Shown here in pieces: positions 4,687-53,368 of a stretch of DNA of 55,351 nt (position 1 is its first letter; each line of letters opens with the position of its first letter). The translations under genes were made by a program, and so were the position numbers. Below the pieces are notes generated by a model that saw only the letters and a program-made list of their open reading frames with translations, did not search any database and was not told the DNA's origin. Source of the DNA: Candidatus Bipolaricaulota bacterium (lineage in GTDB: Bacteria > Bipolaricaulota > Bipolaricaulia > Bipolaricaulales > Bipolaricaulaceae); NCBI GenBank assembly GCA_938083225.1, contig CALKCH010000016.1, positions 1 through 55,351 of the forward strand, read 5' to 3'.

Positions 4687-5622
4687 TCACCTTACTAGAT
4701 CTAACCCGAAAGATATCCGATGCTGAGATGCGAGGTGAGGATGCATTACCAGCGCGTAGTCAAGTGTAAAGAGACCGAATCTCACCCCGAGACCGAAGCT
4801 TGTCATAAGAGCCCCTTCACCGCGTAGTCCAAATCGGACTGCCAACGCTGAGGCGGGATACCACTCGAGGCCTAACCGCCCCCCCTTACCAGCCGCGAAA
4901 TCCGCTAGCAGGATCCAAGAATCGAGAAGAGTGGCCGAGAGCCCAAACGTAATGGCCAGAGACCAATGTTCCTCATGCCCACTTCTATATTTAGTGGGGA
5001 TCTCCACAACGTTCTCCATGATCATTCCCAGCCCGAAAGCAGTTAGAGGCCCAATTTTAGTTCCCTTGCTCGCAGCTCTATAAAAAAGTGAGAAGTCGAA
5101 GGCCCAACCACTCCCACTACCTGGTTCCAGAGTTCGTACTGTATAGAACTTTGCTTTTATTCCGAACCCAACATCCCGAAGGATGGGAATGCTGTGAAGA
5201 CCTAAATCAGCGAGCGAGACGCCGGCTCCAGCCACCACCGTATAGGTACGGTAAGAGAACGAGCCAGTTACGTTGCCCTGCTCGTCGATCTGGGGAACGT
5301 CTCCAAAGTTAAAGAAATGGAGGCCTAGGCCAAGATGGGGCAAGGTCACAGCTATCTGGCCAGCCAGCCCATACCCAAGCCTCACTTCCCCAGAGGAGAG
5401 AGAGGAGACGCTGGTAAGCCCGGCTAATCCTGCTGGGTTGAAGAAAAGCGCGTTGCTATCGTCTGCAAGACCCACGAATGCTCCGCCCAAAGCCAAAGGT
5501 CGAGCCCCCATGCCCAGGTCCAATACGGCAGCAACGTTGGTGTACGACACCGCAAGGCAAGGAAAAGACAGAGATGAGCCGCCGAGGATCATGATCAACC
5601 ACCAACGTCGTCTCCAAAGCAT
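4687..5622 (-). CDS. PorV/PorQ-like outer-membrane beta-barrel protein
   Basis: A signal-like N-terminus is followed by GMGARPLALGGAFVGLADDSNALFFNPAGLAGL, the opening motif I associate with PorV/PorQ-type barrels. An alternating beta-strand pattern runs throughout. A purine-rich AAGGGGG lies 6 nt before the ATG. The gene starts 11 nt after the stop of the giant gene upstream. It has low G+C like that neighbour. Confidence 0.6.
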   Translation of the reverse strand: MLWRRRWWLIMILGGSSLSFPCLAVSYTNVAAVLDLGMGARPLALGGAFVGLADDSNALFFNPAGLAGLTSVSSLSSGEVRLGYGLAGQIAVTLPHLGLGLHFFNFGDVPQIDEQGNVTGSFSYRTYTVVAGAGVSLADLGLHSIPILRDVGFGIKAKFYTVRTLEPGSGSGWAFDFSLFYRAASKGTKIGPLTAFGLGMIMENVVEIPTKYRSGHEEHWSLAITFGLSATLLDSWILLADFAAGKGGRLGLEWYPASALAVRFGLRGEGALMTSFGLGVRFGLFTLDYALVMHPHLASQHRISFGLDLVR

Positions 5623-5633
5623 TGTCTACCCCC

Positions 5634-8600
5634 TTACCGTTGAATCACCATTTTTCCCTGTCCGATGACCTTGCCGTCGCCAACAAGCACATATATGTAT
5701 GGTCCATTGGCCAGCGGAGTGCCAGTTTGATCCACGGGGCGCCATCGACCAACCGGCGGATAGCGCGTAGCTTTGGGGTCAAGGGATATTTCTGCCACTA
5801 ATCGACCGGTTACGTTGTAGATGAGAAGCTTAGCAGACCTCGTTCCCTCAGGGAGTTGGAACCAGAACACACATCCGTCTTCAGGCACGGGGTTTGGGCC
5901 GTGATTGACCGCAGCCCCGGTCCGAAGGGCTGCGAATATCGCGTGAATCGTATGGTCACTTGTTACGTTGACGAACTTGTAAGTGCCCATACGACCCTTC
6001 ATGACGACCTGGTCAAGCACCGATCTCCCGTCCACGAGTACATCGTGAATCACGTAGCCTTCGTCCGGTGTGATGGTGAACGTTTGATCAGCACCGTGGA
6101 CCACTTTGACCGCTCCCGAAGGGACTATTACCCCACCTTTCCCCGCAGTCGCCGTTATCGTGTGTTGCAGTTCCTCCCCCGTAAACTTGCTGCCGCTCCG
6201 GAGCGTAAGCTCGAACACCCCGTCTCCGTCCTGGTCGACCTCGATTGTGACCCCCCTCTCACCACGAGCAAGAGACTCCCAATCAACCTTATATTGATGG
6301 ATAGCTCCAGCCCTAGTATTGACCTCGCGGCTCTCAAATTGAAGAAAATCATCACCGGTTGCACGAGTTAACACCAAATCGTAGGAACCATCTGAACCCC
6401 CAATAACCACGTATCTGTAGGAAGGATCACGCCCAAAAATGATTACAATTTCATCCAAGTACGCAGAATCAGGAATTTCGTTTCGCACAACACCTTCAAC
6501 CAGTCCAGTAACACGGCCGACCGGATCCCACACTTGAAGTGAAGCGGCGCTCTTGAGCTGAGCGTGAATATACTGACTCAATGTACCAGCAAGAGAAAGA
6601 AGTTCGTCATTTGTCAACGGCTTATAACCACCGGCTTCAAGCGTCTTATCATAGTTCTCCCCATAGTACTCCTTCAGTCTAGGAAGCCACGAGCCCACTT
6701 TAGCCGGATATGTTGGCCCTGTGTTATAGCAGCTGACAGCACCAAGAACGCTGTTAGTCTTATCTAGTCCGTATTGCAAAATCCGAAACGCATCCTTCAC
6801 GTTTGCATAGATGCCTTGCGGAGTGTTCCCGTAGTAATCGTGCTTGTACACCATGTCCGCCACATATGCACCATTGTCGTATGCATGGTAATTTAATAAA
6901 CCGCTTCCCCATCCCTTGTTGCAGCCAGCACACGGGAAGACACCACCATGAATCTGCATGACGCCAACCCCACCACTTTTGAGGTTACCCGCTCGTCCAT
7001 GTTCCTGGTCATAGATACGGTTGTCAAAGCCGTATTGAGCAGCGCCTTCCTGGAGTGCGATGGCCATAATGAGTTCTATTGGAAACTTATTGTCCCTCAG
7101 CTTTTTGAAAGAGTTAGAAGGCTGTCCTTTATGTACACGATCACCGCTACTGTAAAGGGATCGCTCTGCACTCTCGTCAAAGTAGTAATGTAATACCGCG
7201 TTTAGGAAAACTTCACGACGGCGGCTTCGATCTTCTAGGTTCTGAGCTTTGGCAACTAGTTCCCGTTGTTCGATACGCCTCAGTATGTTTTTGTCCACCC
7301 AGCCTGTAAGTTCAGGGGGCCAGGTCGAGTCCCTTACCTCCCACCAGGTCACGCCGTCAGCCGTTCTCATATCATTGTAAGTATCGACGACAAGCATTAC
7401 CCAACCATTAGGGGCAAAAATCATGGCCTGTCTTGGCGATGTGTATTTGTCATAAATCGTTACCCCGGACTCAGTTGAGTGAGCTACCTCCACCCAGAAA
7501 ACTTTTGTAGCTACACGAACAAGCACAAAATTCAAAACGACCGTCTGTCCGGCCTCCACCGTTACCCCAGCCTTTGTCTGTGAAAGGTATCCATCTGCAA
7601 CTGCAGTGATGTTATAGGTGCCGGCCGGGACATTGAACGAAAATTGCCCAGAATCGTCGGTAATCGGACAGTAGGTTAACGGATCAGGTTCCAGCAGAAG
7701 CATCGCCCCACTGACTCCTTTCCCTGTGGAGGCATCAACCACTCGCCCAGTAAGCCGACCTGTCACAGGTGTAGTTCCCCGAAGCTTTACGACATCAAAT
7801 CCCAAGGCCCTTATCCCTGTACCGTCATCTGCAACGTGATTGACGAGCGCGAGAAATCCGCCATCCGCTGTAGGCCCCCCTATTACCACGTTGTATCTGG
7901 CATTCGGCGGATTCCAAGGTTCACAGCGCGTTAGCCATTCCCAAAGAATTGTTCCTTGTGCGTCCGTTTTTATCAGGCATCCAGACCCACATGTACTTAG
8001 CTGGGACTCGACCACCTGCCATACCAACTTTGCGCCGCCAAGAACAAATCCACCATCCTCAGCCTGCATTATGGAAAGAAAAGCATAGCAATACCCTTCA
8101 TGCTGGTTAAAGAAAGATTTTTCCCAAATCACGTTGCCAAGGCTATCCATTCGCAGGAGGAAGGACTCAGTAGCCATTCCCCCTCCATCGCCGAGCCGAT
8201 TAGAGAAAACTGCAGCAATACTCCCACCATCACGCGTCGTCCCCAACGCAGCAGCCCTGATATCACATCTTTTCTCTGGAAAGTACTTTTCCCAAACGAT
8301 CTGTCCCATCGAGTTTATTTTTAACAGATACAACAACTCCCGCCCTTCAGAATGAGTTTTCGCAGCAATGATAAACCCTCCGTCTTTAGCTCTTCGAGCA
8401 GAAAGTGCTTCGGCTACACCTAATCCCGAAAAGGCTCTTTGCCAAATCACCGTTCCCTGCGCATCTGTACCGACTACGAAGATGTTAGAAGAGAAGGGCG
8501 CGCCATACGTCCGAGAATTTCCAATAAGAACGAAGCCACCTCCTGGTCTTTCATCAACATAGATCGGATGATCCTCTTCACTCGTGGAAACGTCAATAAT

Positions 8601-8993
8601 ACGCTGCCACTCTTGGTTACCGCGTTCATCGAGCTTAAGCAAGAAAGCGGATCTTGGTTTCTCAGGAGGGCTTGGAGCGACACCTGTGAGTACGCAGCCG
8701 TCATCAGAGGTGAGGCCGATATACTCTCCCCCTTGATTTGCAAAGGTCCTCTCCCATAGCGTATTCCCGTCTGGGCCGATGGCTAGCAAAAACATCCCCT
8801 GTGCTCGGTTACCTACAATCCGATATGACCCATCTTTCATTTGCTGGTATGACGCAATCAAAGCCGGCTCAGAAAAAACCCTTTGCCACTCTACAGAAGG
8901 AGGCTGCTCCGAAGCAAGGCCACCGGCCGAGGCAATGGCGAACAATAACCCTACAGCTGCCCTTCGAACTTTAGATAGGAAAACTTGGGACAT
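5634..8993 (-). CDS. 1119-aa secreted multidomain protein: beta-propeller repeats, CarboxypepD_reg-like domain, SH3-like plus SLT/lysozyme-like domain, InlB B-repeat-like domain, T9SS/FlgD-Ig-type C-terminal domain
   Basis: I place the start at ATG 8993, because AAGGAGGG lies 8 nt upstream and the track's GTG 9002 falls inside that SD. The signal peptide is MSQVFLSKVRRAAVGLLFAIASAGG. About 7 repeats follow of the form DGGF..(x)..LLK.D..G...W. Next comes TGRLTGRVVDASTGKGVSGA...YNITAVADGY. Then ELIMAIALQEGAAQ...GVGVMQI, which fits an SLT catalytic Glu plus the GLMQ-like motif. Then TITATAGKGGVIVPSGAVKVVHGADQTFTITPDEGYVIHDVLVDG. The C-terminus is GPNPVPEDGCVFWFQLPEGTRSAKLLIYNVTGRLVAEI...GPYIYVLV...KMVIQR. 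Confidence 0.85.
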   Translation of the reverse strand: MSQVFLSKVRRAAVGLLFAIASAGGLASEQPPSVEWQRVFSEPALIASYQQMKDGSYRIVGNRAQGMFLLAIGPDGNTLWERTFANQGGEYIGLTSDDGCVLTGVAPSPPEKPRSAFLLKLDERGNQEWQRIIDVSTSEEDHPIYVDERPGGGFVLIGNSRTYGAPFSSNIFVVGTDAQGTVIWQRAFSGLGVAEALSARRAKDGGFIIAAKTHSEGRELLYLLKINSMGQIVWEKYFPEKRCDIRAAALGTTRDGGSIAAVFSNRLGDGGGMATESFLLRMDSLGNVIWEKSFFNQHEGYCYAFLSIMQAEDGGFVLGGAKLVWQVVESQLSTCGSGCLIKTDAQGTILWEWLTRCEPWNPPNARYNVVIGGPTADGGFLALVNHVADDGTGIRALGFDVVKLRGTTPVTGRLTGRVVDASTGKGVSGAMLLLEPDPLTYCPITDDSGQFSFNVPAGTYNITAVADGYLSQTKAGVTVEAGQTVVLNFVLVRVATKVFWVEVAHSTESGVTIYDKYTSPRQAMIFAPNGWVMLVVDTYNDMRTADGVTWWEVRDSTWPPELTGWVDKNILRRIEQRELVAKAQNLEDRSRRREVFLNAVLHYYFDESAERSLYSSGDRVHKGQPSNSFKKLRDNKFPIELIMAIALQEGAAQYGFDNRIYDQEHGRAGNLKSGGVGVMQIHGGVFPCAGCNKGWGSGLLNYHAYDNGAYVADMVYKHDYYGNTPQGIYANVKDAFRILQYGLDKTNSVLGAVSCYNTGPTYPAKVGSWLPRLKEYYGENYDKTLEAGGYKPLTNDELLSLAGTLSQYIHAQLKSAASLQVWDPVGRVTGLVEGVVRNEIPDSAYLDEIVIIFGRDPSYRYVVIGGSDGSYDLVLTRATGDDFLQFESREVNTRAGAIHQYKVDWESLARGERGVTIEVDQDGDGVFELTLRSGSKFTGEELQHTITATAGKGGVIVPSGAVKVVHGADQTFTITPDEGYVIHDVLVDGRSVLDQVVMKGRMGTYKFVNVTSDHTIHAIFAALRTGAAVNHGPNPVPEDGCVFWFQLPEGTRSAKLLIYNVTGRLVAEISLDPKATRYPPVGRWRPVDQTGTPLANGPYIYVLVGDGKVIGQGKMVIQR

Positions 8994-9350
8994 GTAGATC
9001 ACCCTCCTTTGCGACCAGGGCCGACGTGTGCCGCAATGTGATCAACGAGAGCGCTGACAATACTGCAAGAGCCTAGCACCAACTTGGAACCCGAAGATTT
9101 CTATCCTAGATACGTCAACCGTCTCTTCGGACTCCAGAGGCTCGAACGGAGATATGCCAAGCACCAGCCCGCTCCTTCTTTTGACCTTATACAATATATC
9201 TTTTACTCCTTGCTGTCAAGTTTTGTATGGCATGCCTACCAGAACACAAGGGCCTTTGTCTCACTTATGACAGAGCCAAAAGCTCTTTTCGGCCGAGTTA
9301 AATAACCAACTCAAAAAACACTTATGGCAAAGAAAACCTGGCCAAGGATA

Positions 9351-9384: not shown

Positions 9385-9550
9385 TGAGGTAACCGGGGGA
9401 GCTCCGAGAGGGGCTGAGAGGAGGTAAAAAGCCTCGACCCCTTGAACCTGATCCGGGTAATGCCGGCGGAGGGAAGGTTACCGCGCTGGCCCCGCTCAGG
9501 TAGGGGCAAACGCTAAGCCCCCTCCCTTGGTTGCCGCCAAGGAGGGGTTT
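9385..9550 (+). promoter_or_regulatory. TPP (THI-box) riboswitch with SD-sequestering expression platform
   Basis: P1 pairs GGTAACC (9388-9394) with GGTTACC (9476-9482). The core is GGGGCTGAGAGG...CCCTTGAACCTGATCCGGGTAATGCCGGCGGAGGGAAG, which matches the THI-element consensus (CUGAGA ... ACCUGAUCCGGGUAAUGCCGGCG.AGGGA). Downstream, CCCCTCCCTTGG (about 9519-9530) can pair with CCAAGGAGGGG (9537-9547), the SD of the first gene. Confidence 0.9.
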
Positions 9551-9554
9551 TCTC

Positions 9555-10184
9555 GTGCCGCGCACGGTGTTGATCCTGGCAGGCGGCGTGGCCTCCCCTG
9601 AGGAGGCTCGCGAGGCTGCTTGTGCCGCGGATTTCGTTCTCGCCGTTGATGGCGGATTCGACCTGGCCCAGAAGGCTGGGTTGACCGTGGACCTCCTCTT
9701 GGGCGACCTGGATTCCCTTTCTTCCCCTCTTCCTCCCACCCTTTCTGTGCGGCGGGTGCCCAGGGAAAAAGACGCCACCGACCTCGAGCTCGCGTTGGAT
9801 CACGCGGTCTCTTTGGGTCCGGAAAAGATCTTGGTCGTGGGAGCTTTTGGTGCCCGCCTCGATCACACCCTGGCCAACGCCAACCTCCTGGAGAAGTATG
9901 ACCTCCCGGTCGTGCTCTTCCACGACCGGGCCCGCGTGTACCTCGTGGTGGACCAGGTGGAGCTCGCAGGTGAACCTGGAGATCTCGTGTCTCTCCTCCC
10001 CCTGACCGCGGAGGTGCGGGGCGTCACCACCTGGGGCCTGCGCTATGCCCTCACCGACGGCGTCCTCCTGCGGGCCTCTACCCGGGGCGTGTCCAACGAA
10101 GTGGTGGCCACGCCGTTCGGCGTCAGCCTGCGCGAGGGAAAGCTCCTCCTCATCCATATGCCCAAAGGAGGTGGGCCATCATGA
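9555..10184 (+). CDS. thiN: thiamine pyrophosphokinase (thiamine diphosphokinase)
   Basis: GTG 9555 lies 7 nt after AAGGAGGGG, and the track start at 9531 would lie in the riboswitch platform. Motifs: ILAGG, AVDGG, GDLDS, KDATD, GAFGARLDH, GLRYAL. Confidence 0.85.
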   Translation: MPRTVLILAGGVASPEEAREAACAADFVLAVDGGFDLAQKAGLTVDLLLGDLDSLSSPLPPTLSVRRVPREKDATDLELALDHAVSLGPEKILVVGAFGARLDHTLANANLLEKYDLPVVLFHDRARVYLVVDQVELAGEPGDLVSLLPLTAEVRGVTTWGLRYALTDGVLLRASTRGVSNEVVATPFGVSLREGKLLLIHMPKGGGPS

Positions 10185-11194
10185 GGAAGTTTTTGGCGGT
10201 GTTGTGGGCAGTCTTTGCTCTGTGGGGAGCGGCTGAGGAACTGGTGGTCTACACCTATGATTCCTTTGTGTCCTGGGGGCCGGCCTTGGCCATCCAGGAG
10301 AAGTTCGAGGCCCTGTTCCCTGGGGTGACCCTTCGCTGGGTGGCGGTGGGCGACTCCTCGGAGATGCTCTCCCGCCTCATCGCCGAGCTCCAGTTGGGCC
10401 TGCCCACTGCTGATGTGTTCCTGGGCCTGGCGGACGTGGAACTCCCTCGCGCTTTAGCCCACAACGTCTTCCAGCCCTACGATCCCCAGCGGATCCCCAA
10501 CCTTGCGGATGTGCCGGCCGAGCTCATCTTCGACCCCACCGGGCACGTCCTCCCCTACGACCACGGCTACGTGACCTTCGTGTACGACTCCGAGCTTTTG
10601 CCCGAGGAGCTCGTGCCCCAAGGCCTGGAGGACCTCTTGCGGCCGGAGCTGCGCGGCAAGATCATCGTCACTGACCCGCGCACCTCTTCTCCAGGCCTTT
10701 CCTTCCTGCTTTGGACGATCGCCCACTTCGGGGAAGGGTGGCCCGATTACTGGCGGAAACTCTTGCCCAACCTGCTGGCCATCACCAAGGGTTGGTCTGA
10801 GGCTTACGACATGTTCCTGGCGGGGGAGGCCCCCATCGTCCTCTCCTACTCCACAGACACAGCTTACTCCTACATCGAATACGGTTCCCTGCGGTATCGG
10901 GCCATCACGCTCGGGGGCGAGGCCTTCCGCCAGGTGGAGGGGATGGGCATCGTGAGGAACACGAAGGAGCTCGAGCTGGCCCACGCCTTCTTGAACCTCG
11001 TCCTTTCCGTAGAGATCCAGGAGCTCATGCCCACCACACAGTGGATGTTCCCGGTGAACGCGCAAGCCAAGCTCCCTCCGGGCTACGAGTACGCGGTGAT
11101 CCCGGAAAAGCCAGTCTTCTTGGAACCGGAGTTGGTGGGCGAAAAGCTCGAGGAGTGGCTGAACCAGTGGCAAAAGCTGTTGATCGGCGGCTGA
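10181..11194 (+). CDS. thiB: thiamine ABC transporter substrate-binding protein
   Basis: ATGA overlap with thiN. Signal peptide MRKFLAVLWAVFALWGA. Type-II periplasmic binding protein of ThiB/TbpA size (337 aa). It lies inside a TPP-riboswitch-controlled operon. Confidence 0.8.
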   Translation: MRKFLAVLWAVFALWGAAEELVVYTYDSFVSWGPALAIQEKFEALFPGVTLRWVAVGDSSEMLSRLIAELQLGLPTADVFLGLADVELPRALAHNVFQPYDPQRIPNLADVPAELIFDPTGHVLPYDHGYVTFVYDSELLPEELVPQGLEDLLRPELRGKIIVTDPRTSSPGLSFLLWTIAHFGEGWPDYWRKLLPNLLAITKGWSEAYDMFLAGEAPIVLSYSTDTAYSYIEYGSLRYRAITLGGEAFRQVEGMGIVRNTKELELAHAFLNLVLSVEIQELMPTTQWMFPVNAQAKLPPGYEYAVIPEKPVFLEPELVGEKLEEWLNQWQKLLIGG

Positions 11195-12855
11195 TCCGGA
11201 GAAGGGGGGCAAGCCTGCTTTGGGCCGGCTTGCCCCTTTTCGTTTTGGCCACGGCCTTCTTTCTTCCCTTGGCCAACGTGCTCCTATTGGGCCTGCGGCT
11301 GGAGGACCAGTGGACCCTGGCCCGGGTGCGCGCGGTCCTCGCTGACCCCTATGTGCGCCACCTCTTCTCCTTCACCGCTTGGCAAGCGTTTCTTTCCACT
11401 CTTCTCAGCTTCGTCCTGGGCTTTCCTTTGGGGTGGTTCCTCACGCGGTACCGTTTCCCGGGAAAGAGCCTGGCCCGGGCTTTCACCCTGGCGCCGTTCG
11501 TGCTCCCGCCCATCACCGTGGCCCTCGGCTTTTTCCTGTTCTTCGGCCACACGGGCTACCTCAACCATGCCCTCCAAAAAATTTTGAGACTCCGGGATCC
11601 GCCGTTGAAGCTGCTTTATTCTCTTTGGGCCATCGTGCTTGCCCATGCCTTTTACAATGCACCTGTGTTTGCCCGCTTCGTCCATGCCGCATGGAGCTCG
11701 CTTGACCCCGCGTTGGAAGAGGCTTGCGCCGTTTTGGGGGTCCGGAGGTTCCGGGCCTTTCTCACCGTGACCCTACCGCTCCTGCTGCCCGCGATCTTCT
11801 CCGCCGCGGCCCTGGTCTTTGTCCTGTGCTTTCTCTCTTTCGCCATCCCCCTGTCGCTGGGCGGGGCCCGCTACGCCACAGTGGAGGTGGGGGTTTATTT
11901 GTACGCGCGGGTGTACGTGGACCTGCCGCGGGCCGCGGCCCTGGGCCTGGTCCAGCTCCTGGTGACCCTGGGTTTGGCCTACCTTTACGTGCGGGGCGGC
12001 GGGCGGTGGTCCGCCCCCCAGGAAAGGCTGCGTCCCCTCCCCACCTTGCCTTTCCCCTCCCGTGCGGCCCATGGGCTTTGGCTCCTTTGGCTTTTGGGAA
12101 GCGCTGTCCTCTTTTTCGGCCCCATCGGTTCCGTGGTCGCCGATTCCTTCACCCGACCTTTGGGCGGCCGCCCCGCGGGCTTGGGCTGGTATCGCTTCAT
12201 CTTTTCCCCCGAGCACAACCCGTTCATCGGCACCTCGCCCTTGGGGAGCGTTCGGGTGAGCTTGGAGGTGGCCGGCTTCTCCACCCTGTTGGCGTTGGCC
12301 TTGGGGCTAGGGGTAAGCGGTGCCTTGCGGGTCCTGCGCTCTAGGGCGCTGGAGGCCCTGCTCATGGCGCCCCTGGCCGTGTCCTCCGTGGTCCTGGGGC
12401 TGGCTCTGCTTCTGGCCTTTCACCGTCCGCCTTTTGTTTATCTCTCCGAGAAGCACGCGCTCATTCTCGCTCATGCTCTTTTGTTCTACCCCTTTGTGGT
12501 GCGGATCGTGCGGCCGATCTGGGAGGGGTTGGCGCCGGGTTGGGTGGAGGCCGCCCGGGTGCTGGGAGCAAGCCGCCTGCGTGCCTTCCTCACCGTGGAG
12601 GCGCCGCTTCTGGCCCAGGCCCTGCTTGTGGCCGGGGCCTTCAGCCTCGCCCTCTCCCTGGGCGAGATGACCGCCGCGGCCATGCTCTCCCGGGGAGAGC
12701 TTGTGACCCTGCCCCTGGCCATCTACCGTTTCCTTTCGGCGCGACGGTTCGGTGCCGCCTCCGCCATGGCCTCCCTCCTCATCCTCATCACCGTGGCCGC
12801 GGTGATCGTTTGGGAATGGCTGGGCGAACGGAGCCTGCGCCATGGCCAAGCTTGA
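11167..12855 (+). CDS. thiP: thiamine ABC transporter permease (two fused TMD halves)
   Basis: About 12 predicted TM segments, with two EAA-like loops ([22 protein letters not shown] and [21 protein letters not shown]). The start is uncertain. I chose GTG 11167 because the track start at 11041 would overlap thiB by about 150 nt. Confidence 0.75.
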
Positions 12856-13873
12856 GGTGGAAAACCTAACGAAGCGCTTTGGCCCCGTGGTGGCCGTGGC
12901 GGGAGTTTCTTTTTCCGTAGACCCCGGGGAAATTCTTGTGCTCCTGGGTCCCTCAGGGTGCGGGAAGACCACGGTTCTTCGGTGCATTGCGGGTTTGGAG
13001 CACCCCGATGCCGGGGATGTACGGTTGGATGGCCGCTCGCTCCTTGGGCTTCCGCCTGAGCGGCGCGGTGTGGGACTGGTGTTCCAGCATTACGCGCTCT
13101 TTCCCCACCTTTCTGTGGCCGCCAACGTGGCCTATGGGCTTCGCCACGGAAGGCTTCGTCTTTCCCGAACGCTGCGGCAAAAGAGGGTGGCGGAGCTTCT
13201 CGCTCTGGTGGGGCTTTCGGGTTATGAGCGGCGCAAGCCCCACGAGCTCTCGGAGGGGCAGAAGCAGCGTGTGGCTCTGGCCCGGGCCCTGGCGGTGGAG
13301 CCCCAGCTGCTTCTCTTGGACGAGCCCCTGTCTGCGTTGGATGCGGCTTTGAGGATGGAGCTACGTCGGGAGCTCCGGCGCATTCTGAAAGAAAGAAACA
13401 CCACCTCTGTGTACGTCACGCACGACCAGACGGAGGCCCTGGCCTTGGCTGATCGGGTGGGGGTGATGCGTGAAGGCAAGCTGGAGCAGGTGGATCGCCC
13501 TGAGGATCTCTATGAGCGGCCGAAGGCCTCGTTTGTGGCGCAATTTTTGGGCCGGGCCAACCTGTGGCCGGCCCGCGTGGTGCGCCTCGAGCCCCCCCGC
13601 GCCTGGGTGGAGGTGGCCGGCGTGACGGTGGAAGCGGAGGTTCTGGCCCCTCCCCAGGGCGAGGAGGCGCTTCTCTTTTTCCGGCCGGAGTGGGTGGAGC
13701 TTGGTCGCGGCCCATTCCGGGCGGAGCTCAGGGAGGCCGAGTACCTGGGCGACCACTGGGAGGCGCGGGGGAGGGTCCAGGGTCTTCCGCTTGTTTTGCA
13801 TACCCCTACCATTCCCGCAAATCCCCTGAATTTCCAGATCAAGCGAGCGTTCCTGCTTCCCACAGGGCACTAG
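12842..13873 (+). CDS. thiQ: ABC transporter ATP-binding protein with C-terminal TOBE-like extension
   Basis: Walker [11 protein letters not shown]-loop, signature [15 protein letters not shown], Walker [13 protein letters not shown], and H-loop VTHDQ. It overlaps the thiP end by 14 nt. Confidence 0.75.
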
Positions 13874-14036
13874 GCGCGGTGCGTGGGGCTGGCCTCCCCC
13901 GGCCGCCTCGTCCCCTCGCGGCTCATGGAAAAGGCGTGCGCGGGTTTTGCAAAAAGCTCGGTGTTCCCAATCTTGCGTTCGAGCCTTTCCTTACACTACA
14001 ATGCTAGAGAAGTGTTGAGCCAGCTGGAGGAGGGGC

Positions 14037-14609
14037 ATGATGTCTTCGAGCGCAGTTTGGTGGTTTATGTTGGTGGGAGCGATGCTCCTCGCGGCTGGGC
14101 TTCGGCCTGTGGTCCCTGAGCCAAGGGTCGTCCAACACGTGGATTTAAAGCGGTACATGGGGAAGTGGTACGCTTTGGCCCACATCCCCAGCTGGTTTGA
14201 GCGGGGCTGCCAAGCGGACACGATGGCGACTTATACCCTGCTTCCGGACGGCGCCATCGAGGTTGTGAACGAGTGCTACGATGCTTCCGGGCATAAAAAG
14301 GTGATCCGCGGCCGGGCCTGGATTCCGGATCCTAAGGAACCAGGAAAGCTCAAGGTGAGCTTCTTCCAGCTCTTCGGGCACTGGTTTTTTGCCGGGAATT
14401 ACTGGATCTTGTCTTTGGGGCCGGATTACTCCTATGCCGTGGTGGGTGAACCGCAACGGAAGTACGGCTGGATTCTGAGCCGCACTCCCAGCCTGTCCGA
14501 TTCGGTCTGGGAAGAAATCAAAGCAGTTCTTAGAGAAAACGGTTACGCCTGGGACAAATTCGTGCTCATTGACCAATCCCCAAACTTAGGGACAGCCCAC
14601 CCGCGTTGA
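14037..14609 (+). CDS. blc: bacterial lipocalin (Blc family)
   Basis: VDLKRYMGKWYALAHIP, then a Lipocalin_2-type pattern ...LKVSFF...NYWILSLGPDYSYAVVGEPQRKYGWILSRTPSLS. GGAGGAGGGG precedes the ATG. The N-terminus is a TM/signal segment without a lipobox Cys. Confidence 0.85.
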   Translation: MMSSSAVWWFMLVGAMLLAAGLRPVVPEPRVVQHVDLKRYMGKWYALAHIPSWFERGCQADTMATYTLLPDGAIEVVNECYDASGHKKVIRGRAWIPDPKEPGKLKVSFFQLFGHWFFAGNYWILSLGPDYSYAVVGEPQRKYGWILSRTPSLSDSVWEEIKAVLRENGYAWDKFVLIDQSPNLGTAHPR

Positions 14610-14627
14610 CCGACTTGGTGATACTGG

Positions 14628-14660
14628 GCCACGGCGGCTCCACCCAGGCGCGTGGTTTTT
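14628..14660 (+). terminator. possible intrinsic terminator of blc
   Basis: CCACG...CGTGG stem (about 14629-14655) followed by TTTTT (14656-14660). The stem is short and the loop long, so this is weak. Confidence 0.3.
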
Positions 14661-15414
14661 GGGGTCTTCTTTCGCCAAGGGAGTCCGTGGGGGCACCGGG
14701 ATACAGGTCTTTCCCCTCGCGGTTTTAGGCCCTTCCCCACCTGGTCCTACGGCGTGGCCTCAACATGCGGGGGACCGCCGCGCTGTTTACGGCCATCCTC
14801 TCGGAGAGGCTGCCTGTTCCCAGCGGCTCCAGCTAAGGGAGGCTCTTAACTAACGCTTCCGAATGGCACTTAGCACATCCCCTTGTTACCGTCCGACTTC
14901 GAACCTGTTTAGCACTCCTGTTGTCGGCGGGTAGTGTCTCGGGAAGTGTGTCTGCGGGGCAGCGTGGTAGCCTTCCCAGAAAAACCAAGATAAGAAAGGA
15001 GGGCCCCTAGCGGACAAAACCCGCGAAGAGATCGCAAAAGGTGGAAGAGCGGATCGGTGTTCCGTGGGAAGGAAGCGGTGGAGAAGCCTCTGTACTTGGC
15101 GCTGAGCAACCTAAACGAAAGGCTAGAAGGGCCTCGCCTACTTGGCCTTGCGGAAGTAGGGATGGGAAGCCACCATGTGGCCCAGACACACTAAACGAGG
15201 CACTATGAACGGAGGTGGGCGAGTAAAGAGAGGAAGTGGACAGAGGTCCAGACACAATCGACGCAGCACTGGAGGTGAAGGGCTTGTAAGGCAGCAGCCA
15301 AATGGCGGCGCTTAGCTGTTGGGAACTATCCGAAGACCATTCCTCAGCAAGCTCACCACGGATTTTACGCCAAATGGTATCTGCGCCCTTTCAAAAAGAA
15401 CAGGTCCAGTTCGC
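14661..15414. other. unassigned gene-free interval (candidate structured non-coding RNA or decayed element)
   Basis: No ORF longer than 93 aa, and none is protein-like. The interval lies between the 3' ends of convergent blc and xth. It contains hairpins, e.g. CCTACTT(10 nt)AAGTAGG at 15137-15160 and GGGAAG(25 nt)CTTCCC at 14941-14977, and degenerate repeats (see findings). Strand is unknown. Confidence 0.3.
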
Positions 15415-16200
15415 CTATAGCTCGAATTCGGCCACAAGGAAAGTATGGTCAGAAGGTTTTTCCGCGCGGCGGGCCTCCCGGTCAATCCAGGCCCGCACGC
15501 TTTTCTCCGCTAAAGGCGGCGTGGCCCAAATGTGGTCCACTCGCCAACCCAGGTTTCGCTCCAAAGCCTTGGGCACACGGTAATCCCAGAATGTGTACTG
15601 GCCGGGCTCGTTTGGATGAAACTTGCGGAATACGTCCACAAAACCCCACCTGCGAATGTCCTCCAACGCCGCCCGTACCTGGGGGTGAAAATCCACATGG
15701 TTTCTTAGTTTGTCGGGGCTGTGCACGTCGATCTCCTCAGGGGCCACGTTGAAATCCCCGCACCAAAGCAAGGGATCCTCTGGGGAGAAACGGCGGGCGA
15801 AGAACCGCTTCAGCCGGGCCAGCCACTCCAACTTGTATTGGAACATGGGGTTGTCCACAGACTGTCCCTGAGGCACATAGGTGTTGACGACGGGTACTCC
15901 GCGCACCCAAAGGAGGATAAGGCGATCTTCATCCGCTGGTCCGCCGTCATCGAGGCCAAAGTGCACATCTTGCGGTTCCGCGGGGGTGGCTACCGCCACC
16001 CCCGCTTGACCCTTGAACCCCCGGAAAACCACGCGGTAACCAGCTTCTTGAAAGCCAAGAACGGGGAACTCTGCGTCCGGAGTTTTCGTCTCCTGCAGGC
16101 ACAGCACATCCGGCTTCTCCCGGGAGAGCCAAGAGAGAACCAAAGGAAGCCGGCTGCGGATGGAATTACAATTGTATGTGGCCACTTTGAACAGGGCCAT
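15415..16200 (-). CDS. xth: exodeoxyribonuclease III
   Basis: The N-terminus KVATYNCNSIRSRL...PDVLCLQETK, then GDFN, and C-terminal SDH are typical of the Xth/EEP family. Length is 261 aa. Confidence 0.9.
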   Translation of the reverse strand: MALFKVATYNCNSIRSRLPLVLSWLSREKPDVLCLQETKTPDAEFPVLGFQEAGYRVVFRGFKGQAGVAVATPAEPQDVHFGLDDGGPADEDRLILLWVRGVPVVNTYVPQGQSVDNPMFQYKLEWLARLKRFFARRFSPEDPLLWCGDFNVAPEEIDVHSPDKLRNHVDFHPQVRAALEDIRRWGFVDVFRKFHPNEPGQYTFWDYRVPKALERNLGWRVDHIWATPPLAEKSVRAWIDREARRAEKPSDHTFLVAEFEL

Positions 16201-53004: not shown

Positions 53005-53095
53005 GGAGGGGTGGGCGAGCGGCCGAAACCACCTGCCTGGAGAGCAGGTGCACCCCAAAAGGGTGCCGCGGGTTCAAATCCCGCCCCCTCCGCCA
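53005..53095 (+). tRNA. tRNA-Ser (anticodon GGA)
   Basis: Acceptor stem GGAGGGG/CCCCTCC, anticodon arm CCTGC-CTGGAGA-GCAGG, long variable arm (TGCACCCCAAAAGGGTGCC), T arm GCGGG-TTCAAAT-CCCGC, discriminator G, and CCA encoded. Confidence 0.95.
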
Positions 53096-53368
53096 GGCCC
53101 GTGCAGGGTGGGGGGGTAGCGGTCCCCTGCATCCAAAACCCGCTACATGTGGAGCCCATGGGCTCCCCGAGAGGCGGGGTGGCGGAAGCGGCCTGGGAGA
53201 GGCGGCGATGACGGCTGAGCCCCCTGCGACGCAGGCCGGTGAACCCCGCCAGGCCCGGAAGGGAGCAACGGTAAGCCGCCCCCTGCGGGTGATAGGGGAG
53301 CGCTTGGTCCGAGCTGGCGGCCCGGGTGCGCCCGGAGGCCTCAGCCCCGACGGGAGTCCGCACGGGCC
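53096..53368 (+). ncRNA. ffs: signal recognition particle RNA, large (Alu-domain-containing, Bacillus-type)
   Basis: The terminal helix pairs GGCCCGTGC (5') with GCACGGGCC (3'). The Alu-domain-like segment GGTAGCGGTCCCCTG resembles B. subtilis scRNA GGUAGCGGUGCCCUG. The domain IV motif CCGCCAGGCCCGGAAGGGAGCAACGGTAAG is present. TTTGTTTTT follows the 3' helix. Confidence 0.85.

Follow-up and report, generated by a model that had tools for sequence, protein, structure and literature searches.

A gene-free interval between convergent blc and xth genes in a Candidatus Bipolaricaulota bacterium is probably an inert spacer centred on an IS256-family remnant

The window analysed was the whole 55,351-nucleotide stretch of contig CALKCH010000016.1 (assembly GCA_938083225.1, Candidatus Bipolaricaulota bacterium), positions 1 to 55,351 of the forward strand. 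The gap between blc and xth in this window is, judged from sequence comparison, very probably a non-functional leftover at a rearrangement junction, centred on a dead IS256-family remnant, and not a novel RNA. The result is mainly a negative one, as the ORF-free gap is accounted for by a dead mobile element and is therefore to be struck from the list of candidate novel RNAs. A sequence-only reading had proposed one or more undescribed structured non-coding RNAs in the gap, with a decayed element as the fallback. Rfam searches, fold stability, conservation and covariation were all negative for the RNA. The fallback held for the central ~340 nt, comprising the IS256 remnant and a second right end.

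The interval between blc and xth

The left flank is blc (14037-14609, + strand), an ORF of the lipocalin family (PF08212) and the last gene of a thiamine uptake operon controlled by a TPP riboswitch. The right flank is xth (15415-16200, - strand), an ORF of the exonuclease III family (PF03372). As the sequence-only reading had stated, the two genes are convergent and enclose a gene-free interval, with 14610-15414 being exactly 805 nt of non-coding DNA. Its statement that all six frames are broken into ORFs of 93 aa or less agreed with the ORF list, which holds none longer inside the gap. The gap was also said to stand out in a packed window and it is the largest ORF-poor stretch there. Positions 14610-15006 (397 nt) form the longest run in the window lacking a stop-free frame of at least 100 aa, compared to 269 nt for the runner-up, which lies at the TPP riboswitch. 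A comparable ORF-poor stretch downstream of xth was found in none of 19 related loci.

Codon usage was scored as log-odds with the long genes of the 55-kb window as the training set. The score was zero or below across the gap on both strands, compared to +0.2 to +0.3 in the flanking blc and xth. Codon-position GC periodicity in the gap was only faint. No Pfam matches were obtained with its six frames. The gap was also left without a gene call in L001, which was assembled independently from a strain 99.7% identical to this one. An 87-aa frame at 14590-14850, the longest without a stop in the left part, was searched with phmmer against 1.84 billion representatives and gave two hits, P0241 and P0242. 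Both were judged artefacts, being tandem-repeat proteins whose scores were summed over 9 and 4 repeats. Tandem repeats were limited to a single weak 12-nt array of 2.2 copies, and the 55-kb window yielded no families of CRISPR-like repeats. No switch in strand bias or GC skew was seen at the interval, and a replication origin or terminus was dropped on that ground.

A number of other features were observed in the window. The TPP riboswitch (9385-9492, 75 bits) precedes the operon at 9531-14609, which encodes a thiamine pyrophosphokinase, a substrate-binding protein, a permease, an ABC ATPase and, last, the lipocalin Blc. A link between the lipocalin and thiamine is suggested because the operon gene order, blc included, is conserved in a related locus (L082, 598-5564), and the lipocalin may be functionally part of the thiamine-uptake unit. 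The G+C content falls to ~50% at 5001-9000, the remainder of the window being at ~60%. The gene at 5634-9002 (- strand, 1122 aa) has a codon-usage score of 0.04 per codon compared to ~0.2 elsewhere and may be horizontally acquired. A tRNA at 53005-53092 is followed 6 nt downstream by a large-type SRP RNA (53099-53365, 114 bits).

An IS256-family remnant in the centre of the interval

The gap was compared to 81 xth loci by blastn and tblastx and matched only the near-identical strain L001. Plasmid and phage blastn searches returned nothing, as did scans of viral contigs. JGI metagenomes were scanned with the stop-masked translations of the gap frames, as a multi-pattern degenerate DNA search. 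The + frame pseudo-protein found zero relatives and the - frame found one contig, L085. This contig aligned to window positions 14940-15055 in a block with 46 of 48 nucleotides identical and a second block of 20 nt, with the remainder of the interval unalignable. L085 and the window do not share an intact ORF because of a stop codon and a 19-21-nt indel. A six-frame translation of the shared core was searched against a protein collection to catch spurious ORFs on homologous DNA and gave P0121, whose contig (L086) matches 14933-15055 at 87%. Downstream of the match both L086 and L085 carry frameshifted IS256-type transposase motifs (MYLEEHPxKxNGYYTRD, LVGPxEDLRVPRVREGEF, ILALYAAGVSTRAIS and YYAVFLDGIFLSVR). 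The transposase frame reconstructed from them retrieved 150 PF00872 proteins with E-values down to 8e-53, many of them labelled as Bipolaricaulota transposases. Through these proteins three further loci were obtained, L087, L088 and L089. The homologous DNA in four other contigs corresponds to the two ends of IS256-family insertion sequences. In everything searched the homologues in the gap were limited to 14927-15228, with none elsewhere in it. The gap thus holds a frameshifted remnant of a known gene, visible only via relatives from metagenomes. Such remnants can escape HMM and Rfam searches and were revealed solely by comparison with metagenome-derived relatives.

The remnant is an internally deleted, MITE-like element of 274 nt on the + strand (14932-15205), delimited by alignments to L085-L089 and by its terminal inverted repeats. 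At the left end (window 14927/14940-15055) the nucleotide identity was 87% to L086, 85% to L087, 83% to L089, 77% to L088 and 73% to L085. In L087, L088 and L089 this match adjoins the transposase start upstream and runs into the gene. At the right end (window 15057/15070-15207/15228) the identity was 72% to L087 and 67% to L088. The partner sequence is 1281/1290-1439 in L087 and the end of the second transposase ORF in L088.

The left terminal inverted repeat (IRL, TAGTGTCTCGGGAAGTGTGTCTGCGGGGCAGCGTGGTAGCCTTCCCA) occupies 14932-14978 on the + strand and the right one (IRR), which ends in ...GAGGCACTA, occupies 15159-15205. Both were defined by homology to the other copies and by shuffling. 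The IRL matches the reverse complement of 15159-15205 in ~36 of 47 columns with a score of 44, which was reached by none of 2000 shuffles. Homology to L086, L088 and L089 starts at 14932, and the inverted repeats begin and end where the similarity to other copies does (TAGTG...CACTA). L088 has the identical type of repeat at both of its ends.

A ribosome-binding site (GAAAGGAGGG) and the remnant of transposase codons 1-17 were located at 14994-15055 (+ strand) by alignment with L087 and L088. The protein start in these two loci is GGAGGGAAGGCCACC-ATG-(C/T)GG-(G/A)AC-AAA-ACC-CGC-GA(A/G)-GA(G/A)-AT..., giving the N-terminus M-R/W-D/N-K-T-R-E-E-..., and this ATG is the start of P0122/P0126. The 48-nt conserved core, the block with 46 nucleotides shared with L085, represents the first 17 transposase codons because it aligns with that gene start. 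The remnant codons correspond to M-R-D-K-T-R-E-E-I-L-K-E-V-E-E-R-I. The start codon itself is lost, the ATG position of L087 and L088 being TAG in the window (15008-15010), and the frame is shifted by deletions of 1-2 nt 3' of it.

The last 45 transposase codons remain at 15057-15194 (+ strand), including the original stop codon TAA at 15192-15194, as seen by BLASTP and nucleotide alignment. The ORF at 15057-15194 (MFRGKEAVEKPLYLALSNLNERLEGPRLLGLAEVGMGSHHVAQTH) and the C-terminal 45 residues of the L088 transposase are identical at 24 of 45 positions (53%, E = 4e-13 by BLASTP). It shares its stop codon with L088 ORF2 and the match is end to end. The 5' alignment to L087 stops at 15055 and the 3' alignment (L087 1281/1290) begins at 15061/15070, placing the internal deletion junction at 15056-15060 (+ strand). 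The deletion took out ~970 nt, corresponding to L087 positions 313 to about 1280, and all three catalytic regions are gone from the window copy. The remnant at 14932-15205 cannot produce a transposase. It could be moved only with the enzyme of a full-length relative, and nothing indicates movement.

A second right-end copy lies at 15222-15271 (+ strand) in direct orientation to the first and is more decayed. It was recognised as direct repeat D1 and by local alignment to 15151-15215, with a score of 34 that none of 2000 shuffles reached. The sequence ACACAATCGACGC within it resembles ACACAATGAACGC, the consensus of the L087 and L088 right ends.

Membership of the IS256 family, whose elements encode a DDE transposase matching Pfam PF00872 (Transposase_mut) and NCBIfam NF033543, was assessed with HMMs. 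The NF033543 equivalog model (cut-off 150 bits) was passed by P0122 with 155 bits and by L088 ORF1 with 195 bits, and L088 ORF2 covers the remaining part of the model. PF00872 was recorded for all top relatives of the reconstructed transposase. The window fragments alone passed no transposase HMM. They have no Pfam match because only 17 N-terminal and 45 C-terminal codons survive, and the family therefore rests on nucleotide homology to loci with passing genes. On that homology the remnant is classed as an IS256-family member by descent, as a pseudogene, and not via an intact gene. IS256-family members are described to generate target-site duplications of 8-9 bp (PMC3189936). No 8-9-bp duplication was present at the remnant, the sequences flanking the IS being GTCGGCGGG (left) and TGAACGGAG (right), and it was likewise absent at L088. 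The absence fits old insertions or later rearrangement.

The copies in related contigs were located at L086 5123-5638, L087 189-1439, L088 453-1700 and L089 2855-3849. The reference copies L086, L087 and L088 are themselves frameshifted or interrupted by a stop codon, and the recovered relatives did not include an intact copy with demonstrable activity. Their lesions represent decay and not recoding, because L088 has an in-frame TAA where L087 and L086 have frameshifts. A programmed frameshift in the transposase, suggested by the shortness of the close database relatives, was rejected, as the lesions differ between copies. All 120 database relatives listed (P0122-P0240) are of 209 aa or less. 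Three of the IS-bearing contigs end inside or beside the element. The transposase clade looks widely decayed in Bipolaricaulota and looks to break assemblies. The clade, placed by PF00872 and NF033543, represents a putatively uncatalogued IS256-family clade of Candidatus Bipolaricaulota from which only disabled copies were recovered.

L085 also has a gene-free gap between convergent genes (421-912, ~490 nt), and this gap holds a truncated copy of the same IS. The copy is on the - strand and retains the left repeat and ~30 N-terminal codons, extending as far as the NGYYTRD motif. In these genomes, long gaps between convergent genes may frequently represent accumulations of dead IS copies.

Synteny and the flanking DNA

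The closest Xth relatives were all in Candidatus Bipolaricaulota (Acetothermia) MAGs. In relatives with 87-90% identical Xth, cnh-xth was kept and was followed by an overlapping 87-aa gene and trmB. These relatives had no blc and no match to the interval. L082 contains the same thiamine operon (TPK, SBP, permease, ABC) with a Blc 76% identical to that of the window, followed by a Spherulin4 gene with no similarity to the interval. The interval is absent both beside xth and beside blc in related Bipolaricaulota, so the proposed RNA found no support in conservation. The interval is lineage-specific and exactly at a synteny breakpoint, because xth and blc of the relatives have other neighbours. 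A conserved small ORF convergent with xth and overlapping its 3' end was observed at L002 5778-6536 and L004 5778-6041, both on the - strand. It is 87 aa in L004 (...WWRRRHRDWYKVRTSDGRIFELYFHRGPGRRYWVLLREL) and 252 aa as listed in L002, and is absent from the window.

The following history is proposed. An IS256-family element, with at least one further copy or fragment, would have landed between two blocks of genes or brought them together. One or more insertions, probably with IS-associated recombination, would have placed the thiamine-operon/blc block next to the cnh-xth block. The element would afterwards have been hit by internal deletion and point decay, and what is left over would be an inert spacer. 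The position of the remnant exactly at the synteny breakpoint fits IS-associated genome rearrangement in an uncultured phylum, and we infer that the IS was the cause of the rearrangement.

On either side of the IS-derived sequence the gap consists of non-coding DNA. The left stretch (14610-14931, 322 nt) gave no Pfam match, and it had no homologue among 89 loci (blastn and tblastx), plasmids and phages, or in JGI metagenome pattern scans. The right stretch (15272-15393, ~120 nt) overlaps the most strain-variable part of the gap and had no homologue by blastn or tblastx in the loci or by metagenome pattern scans. Both flanks are presumably neutral DNA. For these ~440 nt (14610-14931 and 15272-15393) the term junk is an argument from absence because their origin is undetectable.

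Two candidate terminators were noted at the gene ends. Just 3' of blc (~14626-14660), a weak hairpin precedes a T5 run and may be the blc terminator, with a fold z-score of +0.43 that is not significant. Directly after the xth stop codon (15394-15414, - strand), a second weak hairpin is joined to a U5 run and may be the xth terminator, with a z-score of -0.36 that is likewise not significant.

The window and L001 differ at 43 positions over 12.8 kb. Seven differences are in the gap and six of these seven lie at 15240-15354, a 115-nt stretch to the right of the IS remnant. The divergence was 0.87% in the gap compared to 0.30% outside, on small numbers, as expected for unconstrained DNA. The sole difference in 14610-14931 was one indel. 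This near-identity is uninformative on constraint because the strains are 99.7% identical overall.

The two flanking stretches could instead be former neighbours of blc or xth, such as the Spherulin4 gene, the 87-aa gene or trmB, decayed beyond recognition. In favour of this origin, the relatives have such genes at the corresponding positions and the interval is a synteny breakpoint. We consider it unlikely. A tblastn search with trmB gave two weak segments (15102-15227 and 15308-15457, joint E 0.33), but these are not significant, their strand is not that of a gene decayed in place, and the first is in IS-derived sequence. Neither Spherulin4 nor the 87-aa protein had a match in the gap, and with ROK included no tblastn search was significant. 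The lack of Pfam matches and of a codon-usage signal and the faint codon-position GC periodicity described above also argue against decayed genes.

Mobility, RNA structure and comparison with known systems

MITEs are described as IS derivatives of <300 bp that arose by internal deletion and carry terminal inverted repeats (PMC3189936). The 274-nt element fits this published description, having both repeats, no transposase and an internal deletion, and Bipolaricaulota metagenomes commonly contain related IS copies. It could on these grounds be a live MITE, moved in trans by full-length IS256 copies and maybe serving as a 3'-UTR regulatory hairpin of blc or xth. This is very unlikely. There is one copy in the 55-kb window and no second copy of the short form was found there or among the 89 loci. 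The same deletion was not found in the JGI metagenome and viral scans, which covered exact patterns, or in the recovered loci; the metagenome pattern scans for other copies returned only L085, a differently truncated remnant. The target-site duplication is missing, the repeats are only ~72-77% complementary, and the recovered relatives are broken too. The window element looks like a one-off deletion derivative and not a member of an amplified family. It is labelled MITE-like with no MITE family claimed because it is single-copy as far as searched.

The presence of one or more novel structured non-coding RNAs in the interval, or in part of it, is highly improbable. In their favour are the length of the ORF-free gap, given how compact the genome is, the local hairpins of the interval and the single indel between its left part and L001. 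The last of these carries no weight given the overall identity of the two strains. Rfam cmscan assigned no family to the gap at gathering thresholds or at E <= 10. The only gap matches at E <= 10 were ROSE_2 (19 bits, in 15394-15414) and mir-1822 (18 bits), both far under their gathering scores and regarded as noise. Elsewhere in the window Rfam 15 recovered the SRP RNA, the TPP riboswitch and three tRNAs. ARAGORN found neither tRNA nor tmRNA in the gap. A scan of 14000-16000 for sigma-70-type promoters returned 0 sites, a result of little weight in this phylum.

The minimum free energy of the whole interval was compared to dinucleotide shuffles and gave z-scores of -0.98 on the + strand and +0.05 on the - strand. 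The local helices listed in the sequence-only reading do exist, but at these values they are not more than expected by chance. The helix at 14941-14977 forms a hairpin (z = -3.05) that lies within the left inverted repeat of the IS. The 7-bp stem at 15137-15160 falls in the C-terminal transposase remnant, and neither L087 nor L088 conserves it. Helices outside those explained by the IS are attributed to chance at 58-65% G+C because the z-scores are near those of shuffles. In 120-nt windows 2 of 42 tests reached z < -2.7, namely 15111-15230 on the + strand (z = -2.9) and 15271-15390 on the - strand (z = -2.7). The first of these is in sequence derived from the transposase and IRR. The sole strong fold signal was that of 14932-15205 folded alone (z = -4.8), which reflects pairing of the two terminal repeats with each other as a long stem.

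Covariation was examined in the left-repeat hairpin, the sole conserved one, using six copies. None of the 12 pairs was compensatory and five had a breaking substitution, which is against the RNA proposal. The pattern fits DNA-level conservation of a putative transposase-binding end and not a selected RNA structure. Each conserved nucleotide block in the interval was accounted for by IS ends or transposase codons, and the interval is missing from the closest relatives at both flanks. An intrinsic terminator considered at 15020-15038 (- strand) was really transposase codons 4-12 on the + strand. A tRNA fragment or attachment site at the conserved block was ruled out by the ATG and the transposase context. 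More improbable still is that 14610-14931 or the IS-remnant hairpin is a lineage-specific small RNA or a 3'-UTR regulator of blc or xth, as a domesticated IS fragment, and nothing supports it.

Compared to the large structured non-coding RNAs (OLE, GOLLD, ROOL, HEARO, raiA, RNase P, tmRNA and 6S) the gap has only ORF-free length and hairpins in common. Their Rfam models had no match to it at E <= 10. Unlike them the gap contains no tmRNA or tRNA, shows no covariation and is conserved solely in IS-derived segments.

The remnant resembles a MITE in being 274 nt long, non-coding, bounded by terminal inverted repeats, derived from an IS by internal deletion and able to fold into a long hairpin. 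It is unlike a MITE in being single-copy as far as searched, in lacking a target duplication and in having degenerate repeats.

The closest likeness in sequence is to the IS256 family, with 77-87% nucleotide identity at the left end and 67-72% at the right end to elements with model-passing transposases. Unlike IS256 elements the window copy is without ~970 nt, a start codon and a target duplication. IS256 elements are ~1.2-1.5 kb and L088 (453-1700, ~1.25 kb) is of the usual length, making the 274-nt window copy a deletion derivative. As in members of the IS256 family, the terminal inverted repeats of this copy are long and imperfect, and the right one overlaps the end of the transposase gene. 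The gap belongs to a known and ordinary class of feature, here in a phylum that has been little studied.
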